Positions 3,489-38,907 of a stretch of DNA of 64,000 nucleotides are shown here, piece after piece (within the stretch, counting starts at the first letter, position 1; every line of letters begins with the position of its first letter). A model generated the notes under the pieces. That model was given only the letters and a program-made list of their open reading frames with translations. It ran no database searches and was not told where the DNA came from. The position numbers were made by a program, and so were the translations under genes. Source of the stretch: an uncultured Pseudomonadales bacterium (GTDB lineage Bacteria; Pseudomonadota; Gammaproteobacteria; Pseudomonadales; JBECKS01); assembly GCA_964557005.1 (NCBI GenBank), contig CAZKYI010000003.1, forward strand, positions 22,378-86,377, read 5' to 3'.

Positions 3489-4301
3489 ATGAGCGAAATT
3501 GAAGCTCATTATCAGCGTGTCAGTCAGGCGTGGCACATGGTTATGGGGGAGCGCCAGCATTTTGGTCTCTACCGCGATGGCAGGGAATCCATCAATCAGG
3601 CTTCAGCACAACTGGTTGATTTACTGTTTGATAAAATCCACGTAGATGCGCAACACCATGTACTTGAAGTAGGTTGTGGTACAGGTGGCAGCGCACGCTA
3701 CCTTCAACAAACATTCGGCTGCGCGGTCAGCGGTATTGCACTGTGTGAACGTGAAATCACTCAGGCAACTGCACTTGCCCCGCCTCACACGCCCTTGCAA
3801 TTTGTAAAAGCCGATGGTCAGGCCAATCCGTTTGCCGATTGCAGTTTTGACATGGTAATCATGCTCGAGTCTTCACTGCTGGTGCCAAACAAGCTACTAC
3901 TGTTTCAGGAAAACTTTCGCGTGCTCAAATCAGGGGGCTATCTGTTGTTATGCGACCAGATAAAACCCGCAGCACTGAAATTGTCTGACATGTATCGACT
4001 CGGCTCGCAGATTGAATGTTTACGCGAATGCTTTGGTAACACGCAAACCGAAAGTCTGGCGGCTTACCAGCATTATCTGGAACAAGCAGGCTTTAGCGAC
4101 ATTGAAACCGAAGACATTGGCAAACAACTGTTGCTGTCGCCTTCACGCTGGAAACACTCCGCTCAACATCAAAAAGCAGACCTTGAAAAGCTGTTTAACG
4201 AAAAGCAATTCAATAATTTTTTACAGGCCTGCGATATTCTGGAAAGTTTTATGGAAAAAAATATTCTTTCCTATGGTTTGGTGCGCGCAAAAAAGCCTTA
4301 G
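3489..4301 (+). CDS. Class I SAM-dependent methyltransferase
   Basis: Motif I VLEVGCGTGGSARYL and post-I/II acidic residues (FDMVIMLES). Confidence 0.75.
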   Translation: MSEIEAHYQRVSQAWHMVMGERQHFGLYRDGRESINQASAQLVDLLFDKIHVDAQHHVLEVGCGTGGSARYLQQTFGCAVSGIALCEREITQATALAPPHTPLQFVKADGQANPFADCSFDMVIMLESSLLVPNKLLLFQENFRVLKSGGYLLLCDQIKPAALKLSDMYRLGSQIECLRECFGNTQTESLAAYQHYLEQAGFSDIETEDIGKQLLLSPSRWKHSAQHQKADLEKLFNEKQFNNFLQACDILESFMEKNILSYGLVRAKKP

Positions 4302-9887: not shown

Positions 9888-11474
9888 TTAATTCACACGT
9901 CTTTCCTTGCCCACCCAATACGGTTCACGCAGTTCGCGCTTCAATAATTTACCGCTTGGGTTGCGTGGAAGCACATCAACAAAATCCACTGACTTCGGCA
10001 CCTTGTAACCAGCAATTTTTTCACGCGCAAACGCAATCAATTCTTCTTGCGTAGCTTTTGCATTCGGCTTTAACACCACCACCGCTTTTACCGCTTCACC
10101 CCATTTGTCATCGGGAATGCCAATCACCGCAATATCGGCTATCGCTTCATGGCCAAACAACGCACTTTCGATTTCAGCGGGATAAATGTTTTCACCGCCT
10201 GACACAATCATGTCCTTGATGCGATCATGCACATACACATAACCGTCTTCGTCCATGTAACCTGCATCACCCGATTTCAACCAGCCATTTACAATGGTAG
10301 AGGCAGTGGCTTCGGGCATTTTCCAATAACCCACCATAATCGATTCGGATTTGATGCAAATTTCACCCACTTCACCCAGCGGCAGCACCTTGCCTGCTGC
10401 GTCCTGAATTTGCACTTCGGCACCTGGCCGTGCTTTGCCTGCACTTTTCATGCGTGTATTGCCTTGCGGGTCGTGATCTTCAGCAGGCAAATAAGTACCA
10501 ATAGCAGTGCCTTCGGTCATGCCATACAACTGCACAAAACCACACTTGAATGTTTCCATCGCGCGGCGTAATAAATCCAGAGGAATTGGCGATGCGCCGT
10601 AAATAATATATTTCATCGAAGAAAAATCCGTGCTCGCGCAATCAGGGTGCATCAAAACAAATTGCATCGCCGCAGGCACCATGAAAATTTTGCTGATGCC
10701 ATAATCACGAAAACACCGTAACACTGCACCGGGTTCAAATTCTTTCAGCACCACATTTTTCGCACCTGCATACAAACCCATATACGCCCAACCGGTGCCG
10801 CCAATATGAAAATTCGGCATGGCAACCAGACTGACATCATTCTCCGTCCACACACTCCACGCTTCTTCCGGCTCAGACCGCTCATGAATTTTTCGATAGA
10901 TGGATAAAATATTTCTGTGCGAAAGCATCACACCTTTTGGGTGGCCTGTGGTGCCACTGGTGTACATTTGAATGGCAACATTGCTTTCAGGAATAGCCAG
11001 TTTTGGATCGGTCGCAGAAGCTGCGTCTCGCCACTCAGTGTAACAAGTCAGTGTTTCGGACTTTTCAGCCATCAGAATTACTTTTTTAACGGTGGGTAAA
11101 TCGTTTTTAATTTGCTCATACAGCGCAACAAAATCTTCCCCGACAAACAAAATTTCAGCTTCGGCATTATTGATAACATAGGCAACCTCGGGTGCGGCCA
11201 AACGCCAGTTAATGCCCACCAGTACCATGTCGGCTTTGGCACTTCCCATCACCAGTTCAAAAAACCAGTCGCTGTTTTTATCCATTGCTGCAATGCGTAC
11301 CTGCGCAGGCAAGCCTTCACCTGTCAGCGCGTTGGCAACCTGATTGGTGAGTGCATCGAGTTGCTGATAGGAAGTTTCGCGTTCTCCGCACACCAGCGCG
11401 ATACGCTGCGGATTGTGTTTGGCGTGGAAGCGGGAAATGTCTCCAATGGTAATAATCTCGGGGAAATAGGGCAT
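9888..11474 (-). CDS. AMP-dependent acyl-CoA synthetase/ligase (long-chain fatty acid-CoA ligase-like)
   Basis: AMP-binding motifs YTSGTTGHPKGV, GYWKMPE, GDAGYMDEDGYVYVHDRIKDMI, PRNPSGK. Confidence 0.85.
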   Translation of the reverse strand: MPYFPEIITIGDISRFHAKHNPQRIALVCGERETSYQQLDALTNQVANALTGEGLPAQVRIAAMDKNSDWFFELVMGSAKADMVLVGINWRLAAPEVAYVINNAEAEILFVGEDFVALYEQIKNDLPTVKKVILMAEKSETLTCYTEWRDAASATDPKLAIPESNVAIQMYTSGTTGHPKGVMLSHRNILSIYRKIHERSEPEEAWSVWTENDVSLVAMPNFHIGGTGWAYMGLYAGAKNVVLKEFEPGAVLRCFRDYGISKIFMVPAAMQFVLMHPDCASTDFSSMKYIIYGASPIPLDLLRRAMETFKCGFVQLYGMTEGTAIGTYLPAEDHDPQGNTRMKSAGKARPGAEVQIQDAAGKVLPLGEVGEICIKSESIMVGYWKMPEATASTIVNGWLKSGDAGYMDEDGYVYVHDRIKDMIVSGGENIYPAEIESALFGHEAIADIAVIGIPDDKWGEAVKAVVVLKPNAKATQEELIAFAREKIAGYKVPKSVDFVDVLPRNPSGKLLKRELREPYWVGKERRVN

Positions 11475-22197: not shown

Positions 22198-22539
22198 ATG
22201 AATTGTTTTTTTTGCAAAATGGCAAACAAGGAAGTCCCTAGTGAATTTCTCTATGAAGATAAAGATGTAGTGGCATTCAAAGACATCAATCCTCAAGCTC
22301 CCGTCCATATTCTCGTTATTCCAAAAAAACATATTGCCACTTTAAATGACGCAGAAAGCAGCGATGCCTTGCTGCTTGGCAAGCTACAACTGGTTGCCAG
22401 AAAAATTGCCCGTGAACTGGGTTTTGCAGACGATGGTTACCGCGTTGTTATGAACTGCAAAGGTCATGGGGGGCAAACCGTATTCCACATTCACCTGCAT
22501 TTGCTCGGTGGTCGCCAGATGGGTTGGCCGCCAGGTTAA
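22198..22539 (+). CDS. HIT family (histidine triad nucleotide-binding) protein
   Basis: CFFCKM N-terminus and histidine triad HIHLHLLGG. Confidence 0.85.
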   Translation: MNCFFCKMANKEVPSEFLYEDKDVVAFKDINPQAPVHILVIPKKHIATLNDAESSDALLLGKLQLVARKIARELGFADDGYRVVMNCKGHGGQTVFHIHLHLLGGRQMGWPPG

Positions 22540-22543
22540 ATTT

Positions 22544-23185
22544 ATGCGTCGCCTGTCAAAACTCGATTTGCTGCTTAAAAACGGAGATCAGATTCTTCGA
22601 ACTGTGAGTGGCAACGCTCAGCATTCCGAACGTCCTTCTCCTGCACACCACACCAAAAACACTGCCGAACTTAGCGAACAAAAACGAAAACACATTGCAG
22701 GTTTAATGCGCATCAATCACACGGGCGAAGTGTGTGCGCAAGCGCTCTATCAAGGTCAGGCTTTAACCGCGCGTAGTGAAAAGGTAAAACAAAACATGCA
22801 GGTTGCTGCCAACGAAGAAATTGATCATCTGGTTTGGTGTGAACAACGGCTTGCAGACTTGAATGATCATGTCAGTTATCTCAACCCGCTTTGGTATGCA
22901 CTGTCTTTTTCTTTGGGCGCGATTGCAGGTTTGGCAGGCGATGAATGGAGTCTGGGCTTTGTAAAAGAAACCGAAGATCAGGTGGTGAAGCACCTCGAAT
23001 CACATCTTGATCAAATTCCTGTGAGCGACCAGGCCACTCGCTCTGTGCTTTTGCAAATGAAAACCGATGAAGCCAAACATGCGCACATGGCACAACAAGA
23101 AGGCGCTCACGAATTACCTGTACCAGTTAAGAAAGCCATGAGCCTGATGTCCAAGGCCATGACAGGTTCTTGTTATTATATTTAG
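22544..23185 (+). CDS. coq7: Demethoxyubiquinone hydroxylase (2-nonaprenyl-3-methyl-6-methoxy-1,4-benzoquinol hydroxylase)
   Basis: Di-iron motifs MRINHTGEVCAQALYQGQ, NEEIDHL, ETEDQVVKHL, DEAKHAH. The ATG at 22544 avoids the listed 78-nt overlap with the HIT gene. Confidence 0.85.
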   Translation: MRRLSKLDLLLKNGDQILRTVSGNAQHSERPSPAHHTKNTAELSEQKRKHIAGLMRINHTGEVCAQALYQGQALTARSEKVKQNMQVAANEEIDHLVWCEQRLADLNDHVSYLNPLWYALSFSLGAIAGLAGDEWSLGFVKETEDQVVKHLESHLDQIPVSDQATRSVLLQMKTDEAKHAHMAQQEGAHELPVPVKKAMSLMSKAMTGSCYYI

Positions 23186-23215
23186 AAAACCAGATTCGTT
23201 ATTGTTCTGCTCACA

Positions 23216-23284
23216 GTCATCTTGAGCGAACGCAGTGAGTCGAAAGATCTCCAAATGAGATCCCTCGACTTCGCTCGGGATGAC
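23216..23284. repeat. 69-bp bulged imperfect palindrome (two inverted copies of repeat module Y)
   Basis: The left arm GTCATCTTGAGCGAACGCAGTGAGTCGAAAGATCTC pairs with the right arm GAGATCCCTCGACTTCGCTCGGGATGAC in four 6-bp blocks. It has an 8-nt left-arm bulge and a 5-nt loop. Confidence 0.8.
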
Positions 23285-23300
23285 CTTGAATGAGGTTATC

Positions 23301-23346
23301 GAACATGAATAAACAAACAAAATGTTGCAAGTGCAGCAGAAGAAAC
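23301..23346 (+). repeat. Repeat module Z, copy 1 (conserved box of about 45 bp upstream of a cassette ORF)
   Basis: GAACATGAATAAACAAACAAAATGTTGCAAGTGCAGCAGAAGAAAC is near-identical to 24072-24116. Confidence 0.8.
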
Positions 23347-23362
23347 AATTGGGTGATCATCA

Positions 23363-24013
23363 ATGACAGGGCAAGTATCTCATACCGTTCAATTCCACGA
23401 TGAGGAATATAAGGTTTTAGCAGTATATCCAGATGAGCCGTTCACACCAGAACACATAGGATTAACAACAAGATGGGTGAGTACCTCCTGCTTTGGAGGG
23501 TATCTTTGTAAGTTTGAAGTTGCAGACAAACAGTTTCGATTAAGATCATTGGAATTGTCACTGAGAGCAGAAGATGGGGAAGCCGAATTTCTTGAAAAAA
23601 TGCCGCAGTTATTCGGGAAAAGTGCAACACTCCCAGAACCTTACGCAAGCAATGTTGGCGAATATTTGAATTTAAACTACCAATTACCTTTTTCTGGTGA
23701 AATTTTATTTGGTCGATTCGATGAAGACTTACGAGCTTCTTGGCATGGTTACACACGAGCTTGGGAGTGTGAAGAAGTGTGGCATCTGGTATCGTCAAAC
23801 GGTTGCATTACAAAAGTTAAGGAAGTTTCAGACATTTTCGAGCGCTTCCGAGAGCTTTATGTGATTCAATTTTGTGACATTGGTAATTCAGAATATGCAA
23901 AAGGCAAATCAGCATCAGATGAATATACAATACATTGGTGCTTGCCAGAAAACAGGAAAAAATATCGGGCATTTTTAAAACGTCGCTTTGGTCATAGGTT
24001 TGATATTTATTAA
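23363..24013 (+). CDS. Hypothetical protein (orphan cassette ORF, 216 aa)
   Basis: A long ORF in the co-oriented array with no overlapping alternative. I recognise no family motif, signal peptide or TM. Confidence 0.5.
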   Translation: MTGQVSHTVQFHDEEYKVLAVYPDEPFTPEHIGLTTRWVSTSCFGGYLCKFEVADKQFRLRSLELSLRAEDGEAEFLEKMPQLFGKSATLPEPYASNVGEYLNLNYQLPFSGEILFGRFDEDLRASWHGYTRAWECEEVWHLVSSNGCITKVKEVSDIFERFRELYVIQFCDIGNSEYAKGKSASDEYTIHWCLPENRKKYRAFLKRRFGHRFDIY

Positions 24014-24022
24014 TGAATTTCC

Positions 24023-24116
24023 GCCTAACAAACGAACACTTACTTCAAGATAGCCCCTAAGCAAGGCCATTGAACATGAATAAACAAACAAAATGTTACA
24101 AGCGCAACAAAAGAAC
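24023..24116 (+). repeat. Complete inter-cassette boundary unit (modules X-Y-Z); attC-like candidate
   Basis: It starts GCCTAACAAACGAACACTTACT; the 15-mer AAACGAACACTTACT is identical to 25973-25987. A degenerate Y module follows, then Z (24072-24116) ending in ATGTTACAAG. A possible -35 TTACAA (24096) and -10 TATTAT (24118), 16 nt apart, precede hicB. Confidence 0.6.
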
Positions 24117-24162
24117 CTATTATGCTCTATGCAGTGTCTTCAACTTTGGGTAAAGTTTGACC

Positions 24163-24375
24163 ATGAATACTCAATATACAGCAATCGTAAAAAAAGAAGG
24201 TAACTGGTGGATCGGCTGGATCGAAGAAGTTCCAGGGGTTAATTGTCAGGAATCTACCAAAGATGCTCTTGTGGAATCTTTGAGAATAACGCTTGGAGAG
24301 GCTTTGGAACTCAATCGCAGTGATGCCATTACTGCGGCAGGCGAAGGATTTGAGGAGCTCAGAGTGGCTTTATGA
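24163..24375 (+). CDS. hicB: HicB-family antitoxin (short form, no obvious DNA-binding domain)
   Basis: YTAIVKKEGNWWIGWIEEVPGVNCQESTKDALVESL matches the HicB/UPF0150 fold. The stop overlaps the hicA start in ATGA (24372-24375). Confidence 0.75.
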   Translation: MNTQYTAIVKKEGNWWIGWIEEVPGVNCQESTKDALVESLRITLGEALELNRSDAITAAGEGFEELRVAL

Positions 24376-24557
24376 AACGACGCGACCTGATTCGGCATCT
24401 CGAATCTCATGGTTGCGAACTGCTCAGGGAAGGCGGCAGACATTCTTGGTGGCACAACCCTTCTCAAAACAAGCGTTCAGCAGTTCCGCGACATCAAGAG
24501 ATAGACAAGCACTTGGCACGCAAGATTTGCACCGATCTTGGAATTCCCAAGCCGTGA
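24372..24557 (+). CDS. hicA: HicA mRNA interferase toxin
   Basis: MKRRDLIRHLESHGCELLREGGRHSWWHNP...VPRHQEI is the HicA/YcfA signature. Confidence 0.85.
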   Translation: MKRRDLIRHLESHGCELLREGGRHSWWHNPSQNKRSAVPRHQEIDKHLARKICTDLGIPKP

Positions 24558-24561
24558 ACTC

Positions 24562-24653
24562 ACATAACAATAAAGTAAGTTAGACAGCAATCCAGAAGCA
24601 AAAAACCAGATGCGAGATATATGTTGTTTCTGTAATAAAAGAAACTGTTAGAT
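24562..24653 (+). repeat. attC-like candidate site downstream of hicA
   Basis: It begins ACATAACAA 8 nt after the stop. It ends in GTTAGAT (24647-24653), a perfect GTTRRRY core site, 22 nt before the next start codon. It contains an internal GTTTCT/AGAAAC stem. Confidence 0.4.
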
Positions 24654-24674
24654 TTTTTGATGAGAAAAAAATAA

Positions 24675-25073
24675 ATGCGTAAGCCTGTAATCATTGCCAC
24701 TTTTTCTTTCCCTCATGAGGCACAAATAGCTCGTTCCAGTTTAGAAAGTGCTGGCATACCAGCGACAGTGGCAGATGAACACACAATTAATATGCAATGG
24801 TTGTATTCTCATGCCTTAGGTGGCGTGAAGGTTCTAGTGCCGCAAGAGTATGCAGATGAAGCACTTGGTATCTTAAGTAGTGATTTTTCTCAAGAAATAG
24901 AAGAGCCCTTTAAAAAAGAGTTATATTGTCCTTCTTGTAAAAGTTTTAATCTTGAGCCTTATACCAAAAGCAAAAAGTCGGCTTTTCTGATTTTTATTTT
25001 TCTGGGATTTCCATTGTTTTTCTATAAGCATGGATTAAAGTGTAATGATTGCGGTTTTTTCTGGAAAAAATAA
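24675..25073 (+). CDS. DUF2007-like (putative signal-transducing) domain protein with a C-terminal zinc ribbon split by a TM helix
   Basis: The N-terminal part IATFSFPHEAQIARSSLESAGIPATVADEH...GGVKVLVPQEYADEA is DUF2007-like. This is followed by CPSC, a hydrophobic stretch FLIFIFLGFPLFF, and CNDC. Confidence 0.6.
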   Translation: MRKPVIIATFSFPHEAQIARSSLESAGIPATVADEHTINMQWLYSHALGGVKVLVPQEYADEALGILSSDFSQEIEEPFKKELYCPSCKSFNLEPYTKSKKSAFLIFIFLGFPLFFYKHGLKCNDCGFFWKK

Positions 25074-25212
25074 CAATCAACTCAAGAGCGATATAGGTGC
25101 TATCGCGCCTCGGCCACCTATTTGAGCGTTGAGAGCTATGAACTACAAAGCCCCCCATCTAGATATGGTGGCTTCTGGCGTTCAGCTTGGTAGCCTGACC
25201 AACGGGCATGTA

Positions 25213-25257
25213 CTGATGAGACCAAACATGCACACATCGCAAAACAAGAAGACGCAT
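25213..25257 (+). pseudogene. coq7: Displaced, diverged fragment of the coq7 3' end
   Basis: 25213-25255 aligns with coq7 23064-23106 at 36 of 43 nt by hand. It encodes TDETKHAHIAKQEDA* where coq7 has TDEAKHAHMAQQEGAHE. A possible extension back to CATCTAGAT (25156) matches coq7 CATCTTGAT (23003), with a 4-nt length difference that causes a frameshift. Confidence 0.65.
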
Positions 25258-25294
25258 GAGATCCCTCGACTGCGCTGGGAATAACCTTGTGGTG
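25258..25294 (+). repeat. Repeat module Y copy fused directly to the coq7 remnant
   Basis: GAGATCCCTCGACTGCGCTGGGAATAACCTTGTGGTG is the counterpart of 23257-23296 (GAGATCCCTCGACTTCGCTCGGGATGACCTTGAATGAGG). Confidence 0.75.
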
Positions 25295-25320
25295 TTATGT
25301 GCTAATCAGCACTAGCTCTC

Positions 25321-25365
25321 TTGCGAGATATAACAAATATGTTACTATCCGTCCATGACATGGAC
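25321..25365 (+). promoter_or_regulatory. Putative higBA promoter plus a 15-bp perfect palindrome (operator candidate) over the start codon
   Basis: -35 TTGCGA (25321-25326), 16-nt spacer, -10 TACTAT (25343-25348). The palindrome GTCCATGACATGGAC (25351-25365) contains the ATG at 25355. There is no Shine-Dalgarno, so the mRNA may be leaderless. Confidence 0.45.
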
Positions 25366-25684
25366 GATTGAATATAGATACAAGGATGTGGAGCAGTTTG
25401 TATTGATGCTGCCCACTGGCTTGTCAGCAAAGTATTTCCATTTAACAGATTTGATGTTGGAGTTTGGGGCAGATTTGGGTATGCCTCATACAAAACCCAT
25501 GTCCAATGGTCTATTTGAACTACGGGTGAAAGGTAAGGAAGGTATTGCCAGAGTCTTTTACTGCACCAAAGTGGGTAAGCAGATCATCATGTTGCATGCT
25601 TTCATAAAGAAAACTCCAAAGACACCACCGAAAGAATTACGTAAAGCTCAACAACGCTTGAGTGAGGTAAAAAATGAACCATAG
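25355..25684 (+). CDS. higB: RelE/ParE-superfamily toxin (HigB / phage Gp49-like)
   Basis: LFELRVKGKEGIARVFYCTKVGKQIIMLHAFIKKTPKTPPKEL is the Gp49/HigB signature. The toxin-first order and the 11-nt overlap with the antitoxin are typical of higBA. Confidence 0.8.
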   Translation: MTWTIEYRYKDVEQFVLMLPTGLSAKYFHLTDLMLEFGADLGMPHTKPMSNGLFELRVKGKEGIARVFYCTKVGKQIIMLHAFIKKTPKTPPKELRKAQQRLSEVKNEP

Positions 25685-25961
25685 TGAATTAAAAGCAAAA
25701 GCACTTTCCAATCCCAAGGTGAAAGCTGCTTACGATAAAATGGCTCCAGAATTTGCGCTTCTGAGACAAATGCTCAAAGCAAGGCAGGCAGCAGGGCTTA
25801 GTCAGGCTGATGTCGCAGAACTTATGGGTACAAAACCACCTGCAGTAACACGACTTGAATCTTCCCTGAGTAACGGCAAACATTCTCCTTCATTGGCTAC
25901 ACTGCAAAAATATGCTCATGCAGTCGGATACGAGCTACAAGTTAAACTGGTACGCCCATAA
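25674..25961 (+). CDS. higA: XRE-family HTH antitoxin (HigA-like)
   Basis: HTH LSQADVAELMGTKPPAVTRLE; the size and position downstream of higB fit. Confidence 0.8.
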   Translation: MNHSELKAKALSNPKVKAAYDKMAPEFALLRQMLKARQAAGLSQADVAELMGTKPPAVTRLESSLSNGKHSPSLATLQKYAHAVGYELQVKLVRP

Positions 25962-26012
25962 CAAGCTGAAGCAAACGAACACTTACTGCGTTCGGGATGA
26001 CCCTGCATAAGG
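25959..26012 (+). repeat. Terminal boundary unit (modules X-Y, no Z) abutting the yhfA stop
   Basis: TAACAAGCTGAAGCAAACGAACACTTACTGCGTTCGGGATGACCCTGCATAAGG shares the X 15-mer with 24030-24044 and the Y core with 23269-23296 and 25269-25294. Confidence 0.7.
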
Positions 26013-26020
26013 CTCCTTAA

Positions 26021-26437
26021 CTACCCCACAACTTCATAACTGTGGGTGATATTCACGCCCGCCTTGCCCAACATAATCGAAGCCGAACAATATTTTTCTG
26101 CCGATAATTCCACCGCTCGTTTTACCTGGGTTTCTTTTAAATTATTCCCTTTCACCACAAAGTGAATGTGAATACTTTCGAACACAGCAGGTACCGCATC
26201 TACCCGTTTTGCCTTGAGCTGCGCCTCACAATCCGTTACATCCTGTCGTGCTTTTTTGAGAATGTGCACCACATCAAAAGCAGAACAACCACCAACGCCC
26301 AATAACAACATTTCCATCGGTCTTGGCCCCTGATTTTTACCGCCGTGATCTTCGGGGCCGTCCATGGTTATGCGATGCCCTGTTCCAGACAGTGCATCGA
26401 AACGCGCTTCACCTTGCCACGAAATTTTACATTCCAT
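26021..26437 (-). CDS. yhfA: OsmC/Ohr family protein (YhfA-like)
   Basis: It has the OsmC fold size and the motif LLGVGGCSAFDVVHILKK...CSASIML. It is divergent from crp, where I recall yhfA lying in E. coli. Confidence 0.75.
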   Translation of the reverse strand: MECKISWQGEARFDALSGTGHRITMDGPEDHGGKNQGPRPMEMLLLGVGGCSAFDVVHILKKARQDVTDCEAQLKAKRVDAVPAVFESIHIHFVVKGNNLKETQVKRAVELSAEKYCSASIMLGKAGVNITHSYEVVG

Positions 26438-38436: not shown

Positions 38437-38446
38437 ATTCAAAACC

Positions 38447-38484
38447 AACCCCATCCTGACCCTCCCCTTTTTTAAGGGGAGGGA
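38447..38484. repeat. GC-rich hairpin repeat, left copy flanking vapBC (also terminator-like)
   Basis: AACCCCATCCTGA-CCCTCCCCTT-TTTT-AAGGGGAGGG: a 10-bp stem followed by GTTTT. It matches 39204-39241 at 32 of 38 nt by hand alignment. Confidence 0.8.
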
Positions 38485-38511
38485 GTTTTGATAGCTATCC
38501 CGTTTTCGCAT

Positions 38512-38907
38512 TCACTCAAACCAGTTTTCAATTTGCAGTTTTTGAATTCTGGAAAACTCTTTAGTGTTATTCGTGACAAGCACCGCATTATTGGCAATAG
38601 CCGTACCTGCGATAAGCAAATCATAAGGACCAATGGGTGTACCCTTCGCCTCCAGCTTTGTACGGACATTGGCTGCCAGTTTCGATTCTGCCCTGCCAAA
38701 GGGTAATACATTCACAATCGAACAAATTTCCTCCAACTGTTGCTGCCGCTTTTTTGGAGCGCTTGATTTGGCTATACCATATTCCAGCTCATAGATAACG
38801 ATAGCGGGTATTCCTATATCCTTGGGTGATACAGCCAACAAGCGTTGGGGAACCTTTCCCAAACCTTTAAAAAAATAAATCAGGGTATTGGTATCAAGCA
38901 CATACAT
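38512..38907 (-). CDS. vapC: PIN-domain ribonuclease toxin VapC
   Basis: MYVLDTNTLIYFF, conserved acidic residues, VTNNTKEF near the C-terminus. The start overlaps the vapB stop by 1 nt (TGATG). Confidence 0.85.
   Translation of the reverse strand: MYVLDTNTLIYFFKGLGKVPQRLLAVSPKDIGIPAIVIYELEYGIAKSSAPKKRQQQLEEICSIVNVLPFGRAESKLAANVRTKLEAKGTPIGPYDLLIAGTAIANNAVLVTNNTKEFSRIQKLQIENWFE

Follow-up and report, generated by a model that had tools for sequence, protein, structure and literature searches.

The convergent genes coq7 and osmC are separated in the 64-kb window (the whole stretch of DNA analysed here) by a 2.8-kb islet. Inside this islet a short segment from the 3'-proximal part of coq7 occurs a second time, fused to one arm of a palindrome that also follows the intact gene. 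On balance, we read this remnant as a non-functional, decaying duplicate of the islet's left boundary, comprising the coq7 3'-proximal piece together with its downstream palindrome. It would have entered the locus when two cargo-bearing versions of the coq7-osmC region underwent general recombination, and would then have been shortened by a deletion ending at the palindrome apex and left to decay; we rate this account, taken whole, a little above even. The feature itself spans 25212-25255 plus a repeat arm reaching to about 25298, rather than the 25156-25257 given in a preliminary description of this DNA. It is a dead recombination scar, a new instance of a well-known phenomenon, and identifies no new attachment site or mobile element. 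Its value is that of a historical marker, pointing to at least two recombination events at a palindrome in the building of a small toxin-antitoxin islet between two housekeeping genes. The features of the locus, in window coordinates, are:

22544-23185, plus strand: intact coq7, 213 aa (Pfam COQ7, E = 6.5e-42; 72-76% identical to relatives)
23063-23106, plus strand: source segment of the duplication within coq7, codons TDEAKHAHMAQQEGA (alignment, blastn)
23107-23254, plus strand: 148-nt stretch missing from the remnant copy (alignment gap)
23216-23284, unstranded: palindrome Y, imperfect, 69 nt, directly after coq7 (DNA fold -24.2 kcal/mol, z = -3.6)
23298-23350, plus strand: repeat X, copy 1, upstream of ORF216 (86.8% identical to 24069-24121, E = 2e-12)
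23363-24013, plus strand: ORF216, of no known family (2 homologues among 5.8e9 proteins)
24020-24066, plus strand: junction B, with ccGCCTAAC (an R''-like box), the 16-mer CAAACGAACACTTACT and a degenerate stretch resembling the Y right arm (sequence comparison)
24069-24121, plus strand: repeat X, copy 2, upstream of hicB (overlaps the promoter-like GTTACA-17-TATTAT at 24095-24123)
24163-24557, plus strand: hicB-like ORF (24163-24375, named from its position only) and hicA (24372-24557; HicA_toxin, E = 4e-13)
24675-25073, plus strand: DUF2007 protein gene (Pfam DUF2007; homologues widespread, patchy)
25075-25186, plus strand: two tandem hairpins with AAC...GTT feet (25075-25134 and 25137-25186), the second with CCATCTAGATATGG at its apex
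25212-25255, plus strand: coq7 remnant (37/44 to coq7, E = 1.6e-7; HMM positions 173-189; pattern of decay)
25256-25298, plus strand: two loop nucleotides and a copy of the Y right arm (30/34, E = 2e-6; similarity to junction A ends at GTTAT)
25355-25961, plus strand: higB (Gp49/RelE-like, 25355-25684) and higA (HTH_3, 25674-25961), from domain matches
25972-26012, plus strand: junction E, with the same 16-mer and a stretch resembling the Y right arm (the minus strand reads as a terminator-like hairpin after osmC)
26021-26437, minus strand: osmC, the right-hand native neighbour, convergent with coq7 (Pfam OsmC; adjoins coq7 in relatives)

The islet is an insertion. Genes in this part of the window run HIT, coq7, ORF216, the hicB-like ORF, hicA, the DUF2007 gene, the remnant, higB, higA, osmC, crp, trpC and trpD. 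Coq7 and osmC are adjacent in all five close relatives, so that 23186-26020 represents 2.8 kb of inserted DNA; the two stop codons lie 7-35 nt apart in four of these relatives (L001, L002, L079 and L080) and 117 nt apart in the fifth (L077). The GC content of the islet (about 0.36-0.44) is below that of its flanks (about 0.46-0.50). Compared with plasmids and phages by BLAST, islet sequence gave no plasmid match and, from phages, only a weak match to RelE-like coding sequence; an exact search for the shared repeat in viral contigs returned no matches. Repeat X is 53 nt long, and the GTTACA-17-TATTAT overlapped by its second copy is the islet's only sigma-70-like promoter match. On the other side of coq7, the relatives L001, L002, L077, L079 and L080 carry a minus-strand ORF of 112-125 aa that separates the HIT gene from coq7. 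In the window only 4 nt lie between the two (22539-22544), and that ORF is absent. The closest relatives share 72-76% Coq7 identity, and searches of genomes, metagenomes and proteins found none above 76% except the same strain.

Similarity between the remnant and coq7 is robust. Both a repeat finder and a MAFFT alignment gave 37 of 44 identical nucleotides, ungapped, between 25212-25255 and coq7 23063-23106, in good agreement with the 36 of 43 that had been counted by hand from 25213. In a blastn search of the 64-kb window, with coq7 and its downstream region as a query that was itself masked out of the target, this pair reached E = 1.6e-7 and ranked second, only repeat X scoring above it. Directly 3' of the remnant and collinear with it, 25256-25289 matches 23255-23288 at 30 of 34 positions (blastn, E = 2e-6); this is the Y right-arm copy to which the remnant had rightly been described as fused. 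The remnant frame translates as TDETKHAHIAKQEDA* with a TGA stop at 25257-25259, and an HMM of the Coq7 family, made from 21 proteins, places it at profile positions 173-189, which bears out the earlier reading of a coq7-like frame running into a stop. A match no better than chance had been named as the result that would overturn the preliminary description, and we consider chance or an assembly chimera a vanishingly improbable origin. The segment is only 44 nt long and lies in a part of coq7 that is about 80% conserved even between genera, but its window-wide E value is joined by that of the neighbouring collinear match, and its local alignment score exceeds those of all 500 shuffles. Furthermore, an independent Logan assembly of SRR16797981 (L091) agrees with the window from 23222 onward with 0 mismatches over 8792 nt, so the structure is not an assembly artefact, and we rejected both origins on these grounds. 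Upstream of 25212 the picture differs from that first proposed. Neither BLAST nor the HMM in all six frames detected coq7 similarity in 25156-25211, and the six-frame HMM search of the islet found none beyond the remnant. The CATCTAGAT at 25156, formerly read as a further match to coq7, is the apex of a local hairpin (25137-25186).

We compared the 44-mer with the same coq7 segment of the window and of five relatives, and most of its 16% divergence appears to reflect loss of constraint. Four of the seven differences (positions 9, 10, 27 and 41) are unique to the remnant. Three of these four replace A177, M182 and G187, residues with 90-100% conservation across 21 Coq7 sequences, and unique changes at conserved residues argue for the decay of a pseudogene rather than for a foreign functional end. 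Two further differences are not assignable to either side. Position 31 carries the Lys codon of most relatives, which could hint at a slightly different source lineage. The remnant and the window's coq7 also share a derived Thr codon (AC-), absent at that site from all five relatives, pointing to a source in the same or a very near lineage. Even different genera agree here at 35-36 of 44 nucleotides, or about 80%, so that an identity of 84% says little about lineage, and the proposal that the two ends come from different lineages is not supported. The remnant has the marks of a Coq7 pseudogene fragment: similarity at E = 1.6e-7 confined to positions 173-189, replacements at the three conserved residues and a premature stop.

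What the remnant copy lacks is as telling as what it retains. Palindrome Y consists of a left arm (23216-23251), the loop CAAAT (23252-23256) and a right arm (23257-23284), of which the copy retains no more than the right arm and the two loop bases next to it. Missing from it are the last 79 nt of coq7, a 30-nt spacer, the whole left arm and three of the five loop nucleotides, 148 nt in all; with those 79 nt gone, the fragment is not the gene's true 3' end. The right-hand edge of the gap falls within the five-nucleotide loop, two nucleotides short of the right arm, at the hairpin apex. Deletions ending at a hairpin apex are a typical outcome of palindrome-stimulated deletion, and the gap resembles them in removing one arm and ending at the apex. 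Stretches resembling the Y right arm are also found beside osmC (25985-26012) and, in degenerate form, at about 24045-24066. Y half-palindromes of about 30-40 nt occur as four direct copies and one inverted copy, all of them at boundaries between gene modules, and every Y-type sequence of the 64-kb window sits inside the islet. Two Logan contigs from the same sample end and start within the Y left arm (23222-23245) with a 24-nt overlap, indicating that the palindrome disrupts short-read assembly. A 12 of 13 match of AAAACCAGATGCG (24602) to the sequence directly after the coq7 stop was not significant (p = 0.14) and was set aside.

As an imperfect palindrome of about 70 nt in a convergent intergenic region with solitary half-copies nearby, Y recalls REP, REPIN and MITE elements, and a different palindromic element occupies the same coq7-osmC position in L077. 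Unlike such elements, Y has copies confined to the islet within the 64 kb, and no RAYT or transposase was found among the window ORFs tested. The L077 element (3985-4094; 110 nt, -33 kcal/mol, z = -8) lies exactly between coq7 and osmC and has 16-nt terminal inverted repeats, GGAAGCTCTGAATAAC, and arms of the form GTCAT...ATGAC, like those of Y. Several more distant relatives also have repeats just 3' of coq7. In L007, a Cocleimonas MAG, 20 kb contain at least 8 copies of a repeat of about 34 nt, distributed over both strands, and one copy, around 10645-10680, overlaps the last codons of coq7.

The left and right boundaries of the islet each appear to have one internal copy. Junction A, where coq7 meets Y, and junction D, the remnant, share the coq7 piece and the arm; junctions B and E share the 16-mer and the arm. 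The 16-mer occurs exactly at 24029 and at 25972, each time followed by a Y-arm-like stretch, and it is mainly this 16-nt exact match that identifies the internal copy of the right boundary. The junctions run in the order A, B, D, E, which can be written L, R', L', R. The preliminary view that a displaced copy of the coq7 3'-proximal segment marks a boundary within the inserted islet is upheld. Junction E itself may be imported rather than native. On the minus strand, which is that of osmC, its 16-mer forms part of a hairpin with a T-rich tail (25976-25994), and the junction may act as the osmC terminator. L043 and L024 contain short stretches that match the junction sequences; these fell inside coding sequence and were discarded as chance.

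Junction duplications are known from homology-facilitated illegitimate recombination and from tandem duplication, and the islet resembles both in carrying a partial duplicate of recipient sequence where acquired DNA joins. On our preferred reading, the islet between the convergent coq7 and osmC would have been assembled in at least two steps. DNA carrying or copying a junction between the coq7 3' region and the palindrome would have joined the locus by general recombination, homologous or illegitimate, without an integrase encoded in the islet. In its most likely form, this would be recombination between two differently loaded versions of the coq7-osmC region from the same or a very close lineage, giving the order left boundary, first cargo, right-boundary copy, middle, left-boundary copy, second cargo, right boundary. 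The redundant copy would later have lost the 148 nt, in a deletion ending at the palindrome apex, and accrued random substitutions. Candidate routes are one crossover with a fragment that is circular or has circularised, illegitimate recombination in which homology anchors the incoming DNA, and in-situ duplication followed by cargo turnover, none of which requires an integrase. In-situ tandem duplication, or a long target duplication with cargo turnover, yields the identical final order. We infer the type of recombination, the order of events (including the arrival of higBA and the other genes) and the later deletion with its timing, since no related genome in the collections searched exceeds 76% Coq7 identity and the intermediates are unseen. 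At least two successive acquisitions, as proposed earlier, are plausible and offer the simplest reading of the internal boundary copies. The order of arrival proposed with them can be put less firmly, and it is possible that higBA was acquired first.

Several other origins of the scar deserve weighing. Genomic islands inserted at the 3' ends of genes, whether for tRNA, tmRNA or proteins, are flanked by direct repeats termed attL and attR. The preliminary description took the coq7 3' end for such an attachment site; an element bringing its own coq7 3' end would have integrated there through a tyrosine or serine recombinase, leaving the remnant as the displaced native end (attR). The locus resembles these islands in that a partial, same-orientation copy of the target's 3'-proximal segment lies beyond the inserted DNA, the intact coq7 retains its complete reading frame, and direct repeats, imperfect here, flank the insert (23063-23106 and 25212-25255); the resulting L-cargo-L' topology is the product of Campbell integration. 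Site-specific integration is unlikely, as four things belonging to it are missing here: a recombinase, the gene end, an identical core and recurrence. The six islet ORFs tested included no integrase or transposase and matched only HicA, DUF2007, Gp49 and HTH_3, with ORF216 and the hicB-like ORF matching no family (the latter, upstream of hicA, no Pfam or NCBIfam model). Another 20 recombinase-sized ORFs of the window were housekeeping genes or unassigned, with no recombinase among them. The copy stops 79 nt before the coq7 stop codon and then jumps into the palindrome, whose arm forms part of the duplicated unit; the longest identical run between remnant and coq7 is 10 nt; and the divergence is mostly decay at conserved codons. 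No same-strand copy of the internal coq7 3' segment was found downstream of the gene in any of 65 relatives' loci, a set in which near relatives are poorly sampled. The earlier suggestion to look in relatives for recombinase-bearing islands at coq7 led instead to an empty site, coq7 and osmC being adjacent in 5 of 5 close relatives. We therefore do not retain the attachment site.

The integron offers a different source for the cargo and, potentially, for the junctions. ORF216 belongs to a very rare family of three proteins among 5.8 billion, itself included, and its nearest homologue, P0122 (70% identity), is flanked in L081 by two attC sites of textbook architecture (754-813 and 1479-1537). 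We used two covariance models, R1, which includes the L081 attC sites, and R2, which avoids this circularity by drawing on seven class 1 integron attC sites from plasmid records. R2 scored the L081 sites at 47.5 bits (E = 3e-10) and 32.2 bits (E = 5e-6) and recovered held-out attC sites in L094 at 34-38 bits. A ccGCCTAACaa box follows the ORF216 stop at the same distance in the window as in L081, and nnnTAAC/CAAC boxes lie 0-9 nt beyond four stop codons, those of ORF216, hicA, the DUF2007 gene and higA. These comparisons suggest that at least one cargo gene, ORF216, is of cassette origin. It could further be that the islet as a whole is a degraded cassette array, its Y halves and AAC...GTT hairpins being degenerate attC sites, and that an integrase acting in trans moved a unit made of the coq7 end and attC. 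Small same-strand ORFs with toxin-antitoxin pairs would suit such an array, as would the end of the A/D similarity at GTTAT and a collapsed ACATAAC-10 nt-GTTAGAC at 24562-24585, which lies five nt after the hicA stop and has canonical-looking attC foot boxes, as though the middle of an attC had been lost; its covariance score is only 10 bits (E about 3) and may be chance. We nevertheless judge this origin improbable. R1 and R2, small models with limited sensitivity to divergent attC, found no attC in the window (best E = 1.2-2.6, adjacent foot boxes only), although R2 detects the held-out L094 sites, and we rejected the junction repeats as attC sites on this basis. Junctions B, D and E showed no hairpin folding, and no intI was found among the window ORFs tested. 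A scan for AAC..GTT hairpins was unspecific, giving 33 hits against a shuffle mean of 26, and ranking by energy placed ordinary hairpins first. Neither of the hairpins at 25075-25134 and 25137-25186 was recognised by the attC models; the second has an attC-like 7+5...6+7 spacing and is only 50 nt long. DUF2007 homologues lay outside detectable cassettes, their contexts (L083-L086 and L096-L098) being free of Y-like repeats and of significant attC matches. The name CALIN has been given to attC clusters without an integrase (Cury et al. 2016, PMC4889954), and by the definition used in that work the islet is not recognisable as a cassette array. It shares with integrons and CALIN its compact same-strand ORFs with toxin-antitoxin pairs, the R''-like boxes after stops and, in ORF216, a family that is a true attC-flanked cassette in L081, and differs from them in having no detectable attC, no intI found and a Y repeat without attC architecture. 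More speculative still, and in our estimate a long shot, the Y halves might serve as recombination sites for an undescribed system of cassette shuffling distinct from integrons. Such a system would load palindromes lying where convergent genes end with toxin-antitoxin and orphan genes, and the coq7 fragment would be a by-product of a crossover or break at the apex. Retention of the fragment for a function, such as a regulatory RNA or leader of higBA or a small peptide, strikes us as very improbable. The remnant does lie about 100 nt upstream of higB, a 51-aa ORF (25129-25284) crosses it in another frame, and base pairing is possible between the 3' end of the remnant and the beginning of the repeat arm. 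The substitutions, however, look random, the fold energy of 25200-25310 is no better than that of shuffles (z = -0.7), and, since remnant and gene share one orientation, a sense transcript would be unable to pair with the coq7 mRNA. Searches against Rfam likewise found no family at the gathering threshold, with only noise at E < 5.

Beyond the scar, ORF216 represents a very rare family that circulates as an integron cassette, and its presence here is a small concrete case of cassette genes occurring outside integrons. In the window, the R''-like box ccGCCTAAC is the only part of an attC site surviving after its stop. Another small toxin-antitoxin locus lies 12 kb from the islet, with a gene for a PIN-domain (VapC-like) toxin on the minus strand (38512-38907). 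Beside it is a strong 53-nt hairpin (38439-38491), and no Y-type repeat occurs at that locus.
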